A DNA stretch of 41,015 nucleotides from a virus (IMGVR_UViG_2537561977_000014), one strand, 5' to 3'. Counted from the first letter of the stretch, positions 12,566 to 16,150 are shown. Made by a program: numbers and translations. Notes: generated by a model from the letters alone, not told the origin.

Positions 12566-13252
12566 ATGACCCCAATAAACATATTTATGACAGTTGCTGA
12601 TTTCAAACGGCCCAAATTGGAGCTCCCAAACGGGGCAAACAAACTACTACTGCACTCTTGCTGTGCTCCATGTTCCGGTGAGGTGATGGAGGCGCTTCAG
12701 GCCTCGGGAATCGACTACACCATCTTTTTCTACAACCCGAACATTCATCCTCAGAAAGAGTATTTAATTCGTAAGGATGAGAATATTCGCTTTGCTGAAC
12801 AACACGGCGTGCCGTTTATTGATGCTGATTACGACACAGACAACTGGTTTGAACGAGCCAAAGGAATGGAATGGGAGCCCGAACGAGGGATCCGTTGCAC
12901 CATGTGTTTTGACATGCGTTTTGAGCGGACAGCGCTGTACGCCGCTGAAAATGGTTTCAGTGTGATCAGCAGTTCACTGGGCATTTCACGCTGGAAAAAT
13001 ATGCAGCAGGTTAACGACTGTGGGCGGCGAGCCGTCGCGCATTATCCGGGCATGGTGTACTGGGATTATAACTGGCGCAAGCAGGGCGGCTCGTCCCGTA
13101 TGATTGAAATCAGCAAGCGCGAAAAATTCTATCAGCAGGAATATTGTGGCTGTGTGTATTCTCTGCGCGATACCAATCTACACCGCAAATCTCAGGGACG
13201 CCCTCTTATCAAAATTGGTCAACTCCACTACGGTAAAGAAGAGAAGGAGTGA
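12566..13252 (+). CDS. Epoxyqueuosine reductase QueH-like (DUF208)
   Basis: Conserved [11 protein letters not shown] motif plus CTMCFDMR and EYCGCV Cys clusters typical of QueH/DUF208. Confidence 0.7.
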
Positions 13253-13479
13253 TTTTATGGGGCACCTTTCTGATTGATTTCATATTGGCGAGGTAAGTAG
13301 AATGACTGCGGGTGCTTGAGGCTATCTGCTTCAGGCATGAACACCAAAAGGCAGATAGAGAAAAGCCCCAGTTAACATTACGCGTCCGGCAAGACGCTTA
13401 ACATTAATCTGAGGCCAATTTCATGCTTTGCACATGTAGGTTAGCCTCTTACATGCCGAAAGGCAAGGAGAAGCAGGCT

Positions 13480-13635
13480 ATGAAGCAGCAAAAGGCGATG
13501 TTAATCGCCCTGATCGTCATCTGTTTAACCGTCATAGTGACGGCACTGGTAACGAGGAAAGACCTCTGTGAGGTACGAATCCGAACCGGCCAGACGGAGG
13601 TCGCTGTCTTCGTAGACTACGAATCCAGGAAGTAA
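13480..13635 (+). CDS. hok: Hok/Gef-family type I toxin (HokD/RelF-like)
   Basis: MKQQKAMLIALIVICLTVIVTALVTRKDLCEVRIRTGQTEVAVF.. matches the Hok family; GC-rich fold-back hairpins and terminator in 13640-13760. Confidence 0.8.
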   Translation: MKQQKAMLIALIVICLTVIVTALVTRKDLCEVRIRTGQTEVAVFVDYESRK

Positions 13636-13884
13636 GAGTGACCGGGCGGGGAGCTGATCCCATCCCCGCCCACCTCTGATGTGTCAGGCATCCTCAACGC
13701 ACCCGCACTTAACCCGCCCATCGCTGTGATCTCTCAGCGTTTCGGCGGGTTTTTTGTTGTTTATTTCCGGTGAATTTGATTCGCGCACCTTCGCAGATAG
13801 AATCGACTCACTTAAGTAGCGCGCAGGGAGAAGAGGGATGGACCCCGAACAGGGGAGAGCTATTTATCTGGAAGGATTCTGAAG

Positions 13885-14172
13885 ATGAAAATCGAAGAAT
13901 TGCGTGAAATTTTTAGTGAAAATGGCCTCTATGCTGTGCGCGTTGAGAATGGAGCGATTGTCAGCCATTGCCGCATTAGATGTTTGCAATCTCAACAAAG
14001 GAAGAGCGGTGCTGTGTTATTTTATTTTTGTAATGGACTTCTGACGGACGGTTTTATTTTGCGTGAGGACGAATTTGTCACATCATTACGGGTTTTGAAA
14101 GAGATTGGTTTTAAGGCTGGTTTTCTGCTTTTGCTGAAGAATAAACTCATCTACAATCTTGAGCAGGATTGA
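13885..14172 (+). CDS. Hypothetical protein (95 aa), rem-position ORF
   Basis: ORF between hok and DUF1367 gene, same order as Qin hokD-rem-ydfU. Confidence 0.45.
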   Translation: MKIEELREIFSENGLYAVRVENGAIVSHCRIRCLQSQQRKSGAVLFYFCNGLLTDGFILREDEFVTSLRVLKEIGFKAGFLLLLKNKLIYNLEQD

Positions 14173-14210
14173 ACTCCTGCTGTGTAACACCGTGCCACCG
14201 GAGAAAGCCG

Positions 14211-14810
14211 ATGGCACATATACAACTGGTCAAACAAACCTCTTCCGGATTACTTCTCCCGGCGACGCCGGAGAGTTGCGATTTTCTGCATCAAATCAAA
14301 ATAGGTGAGTGGATACACGCAGACTTTAAGCGTGTGCGTAACTACGCATTCCACAAGCGTTTTTTCAAACTCCTGCAACTGGGTTTCGATTACTGGACTC
14401 CGGTCGGTGGGGCGATCACGCCTCGCGAACGAAAACTGGTGTCCGGTTTCGTTGATTACCTGTGTGAATCAGTAGGCCGGGAACATACGCCAGCTCTGAG
14501 CGAAGCCGCAGAGCAATATCTGAATACAGTTGCGACACGCAGAACCCGTGATACGGCATTGCTAAAGTCGTTTGAGGCTTTCCGCGAGTGGGTAGCCATT
14601 CAGGCCGGATTTTACACCGAGCATTTTTATCCGGACGGTAGCCGTGGGTGTCGGGCGAAATCTATCGCGTTTGCGAATATGGATGAAACCGAGTTTCAGC
14701 AGGTTTATAAATCTGTACTGAATGTGCTGTGGAACTGGATTCTGTTCCGTAAATTTTCCTCTCCGGAACAAGTCGAAAATGTGGCCGCGCAGCTGCTGGA
14801 GTTTGCGTAA
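14211..14810 (+). CDS. DUF1367 family phage protein (YdfU-like)
   Basis: ORF; conserved position upstream of the Q-like gene; start placed at MAHIQLVK. Confidence 0.55.
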   Translation: MAHIQLVKQTSSGLLLPATPESCDFLHQIKIGEWIHADFKRVRNYAFHKRFFKLLQLGFDYWTPVGGAITPRERKLVSGFVDYLCESVGREHTPALSEAAEQYLNTVATRRTRDTALLKSFEAFREWVAIQAGFYTEHFYPDGSRGCRAKSIAFANMDETEFQQVYKSVLNVLWNWILFRKFSSPEQVENVAAQLLEFA

Positions 14811-15040
14811 TGGTGGATTTACTTAAAGCGGCGCGGGGGCAGATGTGCACCGTCAGAATTCCTGGCTACTGCAATCACGATCCGGAAACGTCTGTGCTGG
14901 CGCATTACCGACTGGCGGGAACGTGCGGAACAGCGATAAAGCCACACGATATGCAGGCAGCGATTGCCTGTAGCTCGTGCCACGATTTAATCGACGGGCG
15001 GGTAAAACCAGCGATTACACCAAAGAAGAATTACGCCTGA
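14810..15040 (+). CDS. DUF1364-like Cys-rich protein (YbcO-like), possibly frameshifted near the 3' end
   Basis: ..CTVRIPGYCNHDPETSVLAHYRLAGTCGTAIKPHDMQAAIACSSCHDLID..; a conserved-looking C-terminus (..EELRLMHAEGVFRTQEIWRKEGYL) continues in another frame. Confidence 0.5.
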   Translation: MVDLLKAARGQMCTVRIPGYCNHDPETSVLAHYRLAGTCGTAIKPHDMQAAIACSSCHDLIDGRVKPAITPKKNYA

Positions 15041-15095
15041 TGCATGCAGAAGGTGTTTTTCGCACACAAGAAATCTGGAGAAAGGAGGGATATTT

Positions 15096-15650
15096 ATGAT
15101 TTACCCAACGAATACAGGAAAAAGCGGAGAACACCTTCGTCTCACCACGCTGGAAAGTGTCTGGATTCAGGGAAAACTACGTATGTGGGGGCGCTGGTCG
15201 TATATTGGTGGCGGTAAGACGGGGAATATGTTTAACCTGATGTTGACCTCTAAAAAGCTGACAAAAACGGCAATTAACGAGGCGCTCCGGAGGATGAAAA
15301 AAGCAGGTCTGAACAAGTCTGAACTTGAGGCTTTTTTGCGGGATATGATTAACGGTAAGCAAAAGAGCTGGCTGGCGCATTGTACTGATGCAGAGGCGTT
15401 ATGTATTGATCGGGTCATAAGTGAGGTGCTGGCAGAGCATCTAGGATTGATTAGCGTCCTTCGGCAACGGTATGAGGGGCGGGGGATGACCAAACGCAAA
15501 ATGGCTGAACTGCTGAATGATGCACACCCGAAATGGAGTTTAAGAACCTGTGAAAGACGCATTGAGCATTGGCTAAAGGTGGCAGAATTTATTTTGTACA
15601 AACCAATGGTTATGGCTTTTGGTATAGAGAAAAAAGTTATTGCTTTTTGA
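15096..15650 (+). CDS. Putative late-gene antiterminator (Q-like) by position
   Basis: 184 aa ORF immediately upstream of a strong terminator, tRNA cluster and lysis cassette; assignment positional. Confidence 0.45.
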   Translation: MIYPTNTGKSGEHLRLTTLESVWIQGKLRMWGRWSYIGGGKTGNMFNLMLTSKKLTKTAINEALRRMKKAGLNKSELEAFLRDMINGKQKSWLAHCTDAEALCIDRVISEVLAEHLGLISVLRQRYEGRGMTKRKMAELLNDAHPKWSLRTCERRIEHWLKVAEFILYKPMVMAFGIEKKVIAF

Positions 15651-15728
15651 CGTAAAAACTGCTTCAATTCTTGTACGCTTCGCAAAGCTGTACCGCGAGG
15701 CGAATAGCAGACATGGACATTTGAAAGA

Positions 15729-15751
15729 GCCCGCTTTATGCGGGTTTTTTT
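15729..15751 (+). terminator. Rho-independent terminator (tR'-like) after the Q-like gene
   Basis: GCCCGC-TTTAT-GCGGG followed by TTTTTTT. Confidence 0.65.
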
Positions 15752-15839
15752 ATACCTGAAAAACGGCACAGGACGTTAAACGTGCTGGTGGTCAGATGAG
15801 TTTGCAGATGTGATGACATATGGTTATTATTCTGCCTCC

Positions 15840-15916
15840 GGCCCTTTAGCTCAGTTGGTCAGAGCGAGCGACTCATAATCGCCAGGTCGCTGGTTCAAGT
15901 CCAGCAAGGGCCACCA
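15840..15916 (+). tRNA. tRNA with CAT anticodon, ileX/ileZ-like (tRNA-Ile2, or Met by anticodon)
   Basis: Cloverleaf folded by hand: acceptor GGCCCTT/AAGGGCC, anticodon loop CTCATAA, T-loop TTCAAGT, 3' CCA. Confidence 0.85.
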
Positions 15917-15917
15917 A

Positions 15918-15994
15918 CCACCACTAGCTCATCCGGATAGAGCATCAACCTTCTAAGTTGACGGTGCGAGGTTCGAGTCCTCGGTGGTGGGCCA
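15918..15994 (+). tRNA. tRNA-Arg (TCT)
   Basis: Acceptor CCACCAC/GTGGTGG, anticodon stem TCAAC/GTTGA, loop CTTCTAA, T-loop TTCGAGT, CCA. Confidence 0.85.
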
Positions 15995-15996
15995 GC

Positions 15997-16072
15997 GCCG
16001 ACTTAGCTCAGCAGGCAGAGCAACTGACTTGTAATCATCAGGTCACCAGTTCGATTCCGGTAGTCGGCACCA
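15997..16072 (+). tRNA. tRNA-Thr (TGT)-like, with a weakened anticodon stem
   Basis: Acceptor GCCGACT/AGTCGGC, anticodon loop CTTGTAA, CCA; anticodon stem ACTGA/TCATC pairs at only 3 of 5 positions. Confidence 0.6.
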
Positions 16073-16075
16073 TAT

Positions 16076-16150
16076 GCGGGCATCGTATAATGGCTATTAC
16101 CTCAGCCTTCCAAGCTGATGATGCGGGTTCGATTCCCGCTGCCCGCTCCA
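16076..16150 (+). tRNA. tRNA-Gly (TCC), glyT-like
   Basis: GCGGGCATCGTATAATGGCTATTACCTCAGCCTTCCAAGCTGATGATGCGGGTTCGATTCCCGCTGCCCGCTCCA; anticodon stem TCAGC/GCTGA, loop CTTCCAA. Confidence 0.85.

Follow-up and report, generated by a model that had tools for sequence, protein, structure and literature searches.

A prophage queH cassette with a predicted cobalamin-independent role in host queuosine maturation, neighbouring an independent tRNA cluster

Why would a prophage carry a gene for the last step of queuosine synthesis in the neighbourhood of tRNA genes that do not belong to the queuosine-substrate class? The question is raised by IMGVR_UViG_2537561977_000014, a viral stretch of 41,015 nucleotides (the window, meaning the whole stretch analysed), in which a homolog of the epoxyqueuosine reductase QueH and a cluster of four tRNA genes both lie between positions 12,566 and 16,150. 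The window represents a lambdoid prophage with a host of the Escherichia coli/Shigella type. We consider it probable that the locus holds two independent cargo modules of the lambdoid right arm, a queH gene serving the host by a route independent of vitamin B12 (cobalamin) and a set of rare-codon tRNAs. An earlier note on this DNA had left the role of QueH open; it can now be narrowed to a putatively self-promoted, selectively maintained cassette predicted to act on host tRNAs. Coordinates are collected in Table 1.

Family assignment of the protein is supported at the level of profile, alignment and fold. Pfam PF02677 was matched at 220.6 bits (cut-off 23.5), with residues 27-201 spanning profile positions 1-174 of 175, and Thermotoga maritima QueH (PDB 7lc5) was matched at E = 5e-22, with each of its six cysteines aligned to a cysteine. 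In an alignment of eight diverse sequences (T. maritima, Staphylococcus aureus, Listeria, two gut-metagenome contigs, Erwinia, Providencia and the prophage protein), all 26 invariant columns are present in the prophage protein. The intact Cys motifs described in the earlier note are thereby borne out, and no catalytic residue is missing. CCAPC is the family norm; the CCAPD of T. maritima (Asp13) is the exception, a Cys occupying this position in every other aligned sequence. The AlphaFold model (predicted local distance difference test score, 78.1; predicted template-modelling (TM) score, 0.80) retrieved QueH structures as all of its top five PDB matches in Foldseek (7lc7, 7lc5, 9d86, 9deu and 9dco; E = 4e-11 to 3e-9), with target TM scores of 0.82-0.86 and root-mean-square deviations of 2.5-3.1 Å; the next matches were PP-loop ATPase-type enzymes at E ~1e-4. 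An NCBIfam scan of QueH and its neighbours returned no match for QueH and was uninformative. Chromosomal QueH proteins (DUF208, PF02677, COG1636; T. maritima 7lc5, Enterobacter, Scandinavium, Erwinia, Providencia) agree with the prophage protein in family, length, predicted fold and the motifs HxCCAPC, NPNIxP..EY, RCxxC and QxYCGC. As PDB titles, citing papers and general knowledge have it, QueH uses a [4Fe-4S] cluster and an iron site, and no cobalamin.

The first codon of the open reading frame (ORF) needs correction: it is more likely the ATG at 12587 (221 aa) than the one at 12566 (228 aa), because chromosomal homologues and the Prokaryotic Genome Annotation Pipeline (PGAP) begin at the equivalent of 12587 and the conserved motif of a candidate promoter stops at 12552, which leaves only 13 nt to 12566.

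This motif belongs to a sharply bounded cassette. Homology to phage HannyBb, the Rac-like prophage of avian pathogenic E. coli (APEC) O1 and the Qin-like prophage of E. coli B begins exactly at 12516; the cassette is 94-95% identical in these three backbones, whereas its flanks are 80-82% identical or unrelated. A prophage of strain EC332 lacks queH but keeps both the left flank (12443-12504) and the hok/sok flank, with other genes in the slot. In its boundaries the cassette resembles a moron: a discrete insert with sharp boundaries, whose flanks are conserved in a prophage without the gene. Within it, the core GCTAC shows no variation and TGCTACA(A/C)T hardly any, at a distance of 34-35 nt from the ATG, across five prophage and five chromosomal upstream regions (the latter from Scandinavium, Kluyvera and three Enterobacter), the upstream DNA being otherwise unalignable. 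We infer that the motif is the native queH promoter, carried along with the gene. A generic promoter and terminator scan listed neither this -10 motif nor the terminator at 15722-15752; both were found by reading, folding and alignment. The GC-rich hairpin in the left flank, conserved with that flank in EC332, could be the sign of a recombination boundary or could contribute to RNA stability.

Outside E. coli and E. albertii, the nearest relatives of the prophage protein are 80-92% identical and occupy non-phage chromosomal settings. Erwinia queH lies between purL and a glrK-glrR-glnB-hmp-glyA block, Providencia queH two genes from tmcA, Photorhabdus queH next to benE, and the Scandinavium and Enterobacter genes among metabolic genes. 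Unlike these copies, the prophage gene sits in a swappable cargo slot beside hok/sok; an E. albertii prophage has the same DUF977-queH-hok arrangement at 99% identity. Comparison with the Photorhabdus, Providencia and Erwinia copies gave no evidence of recent capture from those three lineages, because synonymous sites are saturated against all of them.

How common is the gene, and is it kept? queH was found in 995 of 5,426 complete E. coli genomes (~18%), where PGAP labels it 'epoxyqueuosine reductase QueH'; at least 80% of the gene is covered in 985. queG is present in all 5,426, so that queH is always a second, non-orthologous enzyme, and replacement of a lost queG was rejected on this count. 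Among four prophage alleles, dN/dS (the ratio of nonsynonymous to synonymous divergence) was 0.02-0.08 with dS up to 0.22, a sequence signature of strong purifying selection, and queH is intact even in the degraded, insertion sequence-disrupted Qin-like cryptic prophage of E. coli B. A selectively neutral passenger, kept by its hok/sok neighbour and a recombining cargo slot, would accord with the position of hok/sok after queH in every prophage context examined, with the unrelated genes that fill the slot in other prophages, and with a queG that already does the job in every genome. It accords poorly with the removal of amino-acid changes at the synonymous divergence reached, with coverage of the gene in nearly all carrier genomes, with the intactness of all catalytic motifs and with the occurrence of hok/sok without queH. 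We regard neutral carriage as quite unlikely.

The second module comprises four tRNA genes, the only ones that ARAGORN detected in the whole window, all on the plus strand at 15840-16150. Rfam RF00005 matched each of them at 56.4-70.5 bits (threshold 29; E = 1e-10 to 2e-14). Their identities (Ile2-CAU, Arg-UCU, Thr-UGU and Gly-UCC) and their location between the Q-like antiterminator gene and the lysis genes agree with the earlier note, as does its statement that the cluster lacks a queuosine substrate, for no ARAGORN anticodon is of the GUN type. The 'Ile2-like' reading of the CAT tRNA was also right. Column by column it shares 95% identity with K-12 ileX, has an identical anticodon stem-loop, keeps the ileX pairs C4-G69 and C5-G68, carries a compensatory change of C6-G67 to U6-A67, and is named tRNA-Ile by PGAP in a 99.9% identical E. 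coli prophage. Ikeuchi and colleagues are said to have described in 2005 C4-G69, C5-G68 and the ileX anticodon arm as determinants for TilS. By its sequence, the gene is an ileX-type tRNA-Ile2 and not a tRNA-Met, with lysidine formation predicted.

The cluster appears composite. Its Ile2-Arg pair shares 83% identity, across 98% of its length, with the tRNA-Ile/tRNA-Arg of Shiga toxin (Stx) 2a phages and PA32, and coverage of the pair reaches at least 80% in 386 phage records. The Thr-UGU and Gly-UCC genes are joined by 3 nt (TAT) where the host operon, represented by the K-12 tufB operon tRNAs thrU-tyrU-glyT-thrT, has tyrU and spacers. This pair looks like the host thrU-tyrU-glyT segment minus tyrU, the operon's one queuosine-substrate tRNA. 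The same Thr-Gly junction occurs in APEC O1, EC332 and enterotoxigenic E. coli (ETEC) prophages. In two related prophages (L022, 4586-4662; L023, 4580-4656), the tRNA in the slot of 15918-15994 has the anticodon loop CCTTTAA instead of CTTCTAA and is called tRNA-Lys(UUU), but its position 33, at which nearly all tRNAs have U, is a C. In the ETEC copy of this slot the acceptor stem is altered too, and PGAP calls no tRNA. Either the gene of the CCTTTAA-loop tRNA is decaying or the anticodon has been switched on the body of an Arg tRNA.

In location the cluster has the features of a lambdoid late-region tRNA module: it is flanked by the Q-like gene and the lysis genes, follows a terminator, and has an Ile-Arg pair homologous to Stx-phage tRNAs. 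None of 200 shuffles was as stable as this terminator (15722-15752), and its place between the Q-like gene and the tRNAs puts the latter at the start of a Q-dependent late unit. Sigma-70-like sites are no more frequent in the region than in shuffles, and the weak one at 15801-15830 is only a candidate. Directly after tRNA-Gly, an imperfect hairpin (16157-16202; 11-bp lower stem, -22.5 kcal/mol, z = -1.9) might serve in processing or termination, although it is not significant against shuffles. Stx2a-converting phages (tRNA-Ile/tRNA-Arg) and SfI, Sf6 and P21 (tRNA-Asn/tRNA-Thr) carry tRNAs in the same position. The present cluster has, in addition, the Thr-UGU/Gly-UCC pair as a near-copy of host thrU-(tyrU)-glyT, and, unlike SfI, it lacks a tRNA-Asn(GUU), which would be a queuosine substrate.

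Codon usage is in line with a supplementing role. Late and early prophage genes were compared with 38 K-12 core genes, in codons per thousand and as odds ratios. AUA stands at 9.9 and 10.1 in late and early genes against 3.0 in the host set (3.3-3.4x), AGA at 4.8 and 7.9 against 0.9 (5.6-9.3x), ACA at 11.4 and 16.1 against 5.4 (2.1-3.0x), and GGA at 15.2 and 10.8 against 7.4 (1.5-2.1x). P values were 1e-5 to 1e-10 except for GGA in early genes (p = 0.07). The claim that the Ile2 and Arg tRNAs decode codons rare in the host therefore holds for AUA and AGA, both of which are enriched in the prophage. The tRNA set as a whole matches the codons enriched in prophage genes, in line with the published interpretation of SfI, in which rare-codon supplementation by the tRNAs downstream of Q was proposed and backed by an ACA bias there (PMC3636060). 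From the front of the late operon, a position they have in Stx phages too, the four tRNAs would top up decoding of AUA, AGA, ACA and GGA.

Do the two modules belong together, as the heading of the earlier note implied? Their distribution speaks against it. queH occurs with four tRNAs in this window, with two in APEC O1 and with none in E. coli B and HannyBb; conversely, EC332 and an ETEC strain have the tRNA cluster without queH, and the whole 3.9-kb stretch is common to only two genomes. No GUN anticodon was found among the tRNAs of any queH-bearing locus examined. By these comparisons, queH and the cluster are independent mosaic modules, neighbours by mosaicism and not a functional unit. Modification of the phage-encoded tRNAs by QueH would have only proximity in its favour (~2.6 kb in the window); since none of the four tRNAs is in the GUN class on which queuosine is formed, and the modules assort independently among prophages, a functional link was rejected, and we give it hardly any credence.

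What, then, could QueH do for a cell that already has QueG? E. coli makes no corrinoids, and cobamide-dependent reduction of epoxyqueuosine (oQ) to queuosine (Q) was reportedly observed in E. coli and Salmonella by Frey et al. in 1988. QueG is one of the few cobamide-dependent enzymes of E. coli, and corrinoids enter through BtuB (PMC11841063). Both enzymes are predicted to convert oQ34 to Q34 in tRNA-Asp, -Asn, -His and -Tyr; that they share this reaction is expected from family assignment together with a non-orthologous replacement reported elsewhere (PMC5372724). They differ in that QueG is cobalamin- and [4Fe-4S]-dependent and encoded by a core gene, whereas QueH belongs to an unrelated fold and sequence family, has no need of a corrinoid and is accessory; the prophage gene is an addition to host QueG and not, as an alternative, the sole oQ reductase. 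The most likely role is thus that of a second, B12-independent epoxyqueuosine reductase on the host tRNAs specific to Asp, Asn, His and Tyr. In the mechanism we propose, queH would have been captured from an enterobacterial chromosome as a moron cassette with its extended -10 promoter; the iron-sulfur, cobalamin-free enzyme would reduce oQ to Q at position 34 of these tRNAs, while the resident QueG needs a corrinoid that E. coli must import; and the cassette would free the last step of queuosine synthesis from B12 supply in the lysogen, probably also in lytic growth. Two enzymes for one step have a precedent in S. aureus, where QueG and QueH differ in cofactor and expression pattern (PMC13443448). 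Together with MetH/MetE of E. coli, that pair likewise places a cobamide-dependent and a cobamide-independent route in one genome (PMC13443448, PMC11841063); unlike in both, the B12-independent partner here is acquired horizontally through a prophage and is found in ~18% of strains.

Alternatively, QueH might serve the lytic cycle: transcribed with the early rightward operon after induction, it would raise queuosine levels and make phage translation faster or more accurate. The gene does lie in the early rightward transcription unit, upstream of the antiterminator gene, and infection of Shewanella by a phage shifts oQ to Q through queG induction (preprint 10.64898/2026.03.05.709803), so that a lytic-cycle contribution is conceivable. 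However, NAU codons are not enriched in prophage genes, the cassette has an apparent chromosomal-type promoter of its own, queH stays intact in a decayed prophage no longer able to make particles, and it is nearly absent from sequenced phage isolates. A host benefit is favoured over a purely lytic role because there is no NAU/NAC bias and the gene is retained in defective prophages; the lytic explanation strikes us as unlikely.

A third proposal, in which QueH takes part in 7-deazaguanine modification of phage DNA to counter restriction, as phage 9g and its relatives do, is highly improbable. We know of no epoxyqueuosine-type base in DNA. Some phages do use 7-deazaguanine pathway genes on DNA (PMC6884629), and phage 9g-type preQ0/archaeosine clusters are likewise phage-borne. 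These clusters encode DpdA together with FolE, QueD, QueE and QueC and lack QueA, QueG and QueH (PMC6884629); here, by contrast, only the tRNA-specific last-step enzyme is present, with no DpdA/TGT, FolE, QueC, QueD or QueE among the window proteins (Pfam) or in the collinear prophage (PGAP). In the DNA-modifying viruses that Hutinet et al. examined, they saw none of QueA, QueG and QueH (PMC6884629).

Several points weigh against host-serving queH and rare-codon tRNAs as an account of the locus. Q and oQ may differ too little in decoding to matter for fitness. The -35 element of the candidate queH promoter is weak (TTCCGA), and no obvious Shine-Dalgarno sequence precedes either candidate start codon. 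The dN/dS range comes from four alleles only, and the codon reference is the K-12 core set, not the actual host genome. Codon usage gives no sign of a need specific to queuosine, there being no NAU/NAC bias (NAU fraction 0.54 in the prophage, 0.52 in the host). Finally, among 50,697 phage records a single genuine isolated phage has queH (HannyBb, where the gene is annotated as hypothetical), so that one may doubt whether the virus itself benefits.

The protein search of the phage database returned 25 records; besides HannyBb these are unverified or mislabelled bacterial contigs (among them CAKLQH020000001.1, OR844989.1, OR848462.1 and the MT83xxxx series). For example, the 328-kb 'Acinetobacter phage MD-2021a', with soxR, cynX, tadA and ycaQ, is a bacterial contig. 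Such records say nothing about carriage by phages, and database counts of phage QueH would be inflated.

With an active cassette, ~18% of E. coli strains, including E. coli B, APEC O1 and O157 isolates, would differ from K-12 in a basic property of translation and could finish queuosine without vitamin B12; they would offer a natural genetic handle on what the reduction of oQ to Q buys the cell, and a tRNA-modification enzyme would join the list of prophage-borne fitness genes. With low probability, the cassette may even act in lysogenic conversion by making queuosine maturation independent of the supply of corrinoids. In that case, about one in five E. coli/Shigella strains would keep fully matured queuosine tRNAs when B12 is scarce or when BtuB is lost in escape from phages and colicins, and translation of NAU-rich virulence or biofilm genes could be affected; Shigella virulence depends on tgt/vacC, and an ipaH effector is among the genes of the present prophage. 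More speculatively, Q versus oQ status could alter sensitivity to anticodon nucleases that attack the four queuosine tRNAs, such as colicin E5.

We found no paper discussing prophage-borne QueH. A survey of deazaguanine genes in phages saw none of QueA, QueG and QueH among the viruses it covered (PMC6884629), so the prophage case has apparently escaped notice. What is new is the mobile, unstudied setting of an enzyme family already known. Both features are ordinary cargo, annotated automatically by PGAP/RefSeq in many genomes; lambdoid tRNA clusters are well known, and as textbook codon supplementation the present one adds little.

Table 1. Features of the queH-tRNA region and adjoining genes in window coordinates
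Feature	Position	Strand	Evidence
GC-rich hairpin CCGCCC-GAAA-GGGCGG, no U-run	12489-12504	+	-14 kcal/mol, z = -2.95; left flank of cargo slot
queH cassette, 743 bp	12516-13258	+	71 nt upstream, ORF, 6 nt downstream; common to different prophage backbones
Candidate extended -10 promoter of queH, TGcTACACT	12544-12552	+	conserved motif
queH, predicted cobalamin-independent epoxyqueuosine reductase, 221 aa	12587-13252	+	Pfam, PDB match, alignment, AlphaFold/Foldseek
hok/sok/mok type I toxin-antitoxin	13310-13635	+	Rfam sok RF01794, 117 bits; Pfam HOK_GEF, 79.9 bits
mok ORF start; hok	13423; 13480-13635	+	PGAP name hokD in near-identical prophage
Intrinsic terminator after hok	13711-13751	+	-24.7 kcal/mol, z = -5.3, then U-run
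DUF1367 gene, nin-like region	14211-14810	+	Pfam PF07105, 321.8 bits
DUF1364/YbcO-like gene, frameshifted here	14810-15100	+	Pfam YbcO, 115 bits
DUF1133, Q-like late antiterminator gene	15096-15650	+	Pfam DUF1133, 353 bits
Strong intrinsic terminator, tR'-like position	15722-15752	+	13-bp stem and U-run, -18.2 kcal/mol, z = -5.1
Weak sigma-70-like site TTTGCA-18-TATTAT	15801-15830	+	9/12 consensus matches; 10 nt before first tRNA
tRNA-Ile2 (CAU, predicted to read AUA after lysidine formation)	15840-15916	+	ARAGORN, Rfam, ileX alignment; PGAP tRNA-Ile
tRNA-Arg (UCU), AGA decoding, phage-type	15918-15994	+	ARAGORN, Rfam; 54/77 positions as in host argU
tRNA-Thr (UGU), ACA decoding	15997-16072	+	ARAGORN, Rfam; 72/76 identical to host thrU
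tRNA-Gly (UCC), GGA decoding	16076-16150	+	ARAGORN, Rfam; 75/75 positions as in host glyT
Lysis cassette (P21-type holin, lysozyme, Rz-like)	16442-17621	+	Phage_holin_2_1, 119.9 bits; Phage_lysozyme, 153.7 bits

Positions 8476-16151 and 16451-34328 match a prophage of E. coli FDAARGOS_944 at 99.7-99.9% identity, and there are differences elsewhere in the window; that prophage is integrated beside ybhA-modC and carries an ipaH effector. Left of queH the order is a cro-like gene, ydaT, replication genes, ydaV, DUF977 and a 137-aa zinc-ribbon ORF. From queH on, it continues with hok/sok, a 95-aa ORF, DUF1367, DUF1364/YbcO, DUF1133 and the four tRNAs, so that queH, as had been proposed, has a nin-like position, with the replication genes (ydaV, DUF977) on its left and the Q-like gene on its right. 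The DUF1133 protein matches Phage_antitermQ at 26.0 bits, exactly the cut-off, and its homologue is labelled 'q: prophage antiterminator' in phage Rac records. To the right of the tRNAs follow holin, lysozyme and an Rz-like gene, then terminase and myovirus-type structural genes; PGAP annotation of a relative agrees on the lysis cassette, which forms the right bound of the tRNA cluster.

Compared with the closest genome match, the stretch after the tRNAs (16151-16451) is shorter, ~300 nt against ~690 nt, and at 34328-35096 about 0.8 kb replaces ~4.3 kb of tail and baseplate genes; because of these two differences, the prophage may be defective. The YbcO-like gene, intact at 96 aa in FDAARGOS_944, has here lost 1 nt from an A-run (~15003-15007), which leaves a 76-aa ORF and reflects either a pseudogene or a sequencing error. 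Other cargo of the prophage comprises an IpaH-type E3 ligase effector of the type III secretion system (37627-39342, minus strand; NEL domain, 258 bits), a ParE-family toxin (6191-6511, minus strand) and a DedA/VTT-family membrane protein, whose gene is located, in the opposite orientation, between the lysis genes and the terminase genes (17710-18219, minus strand).

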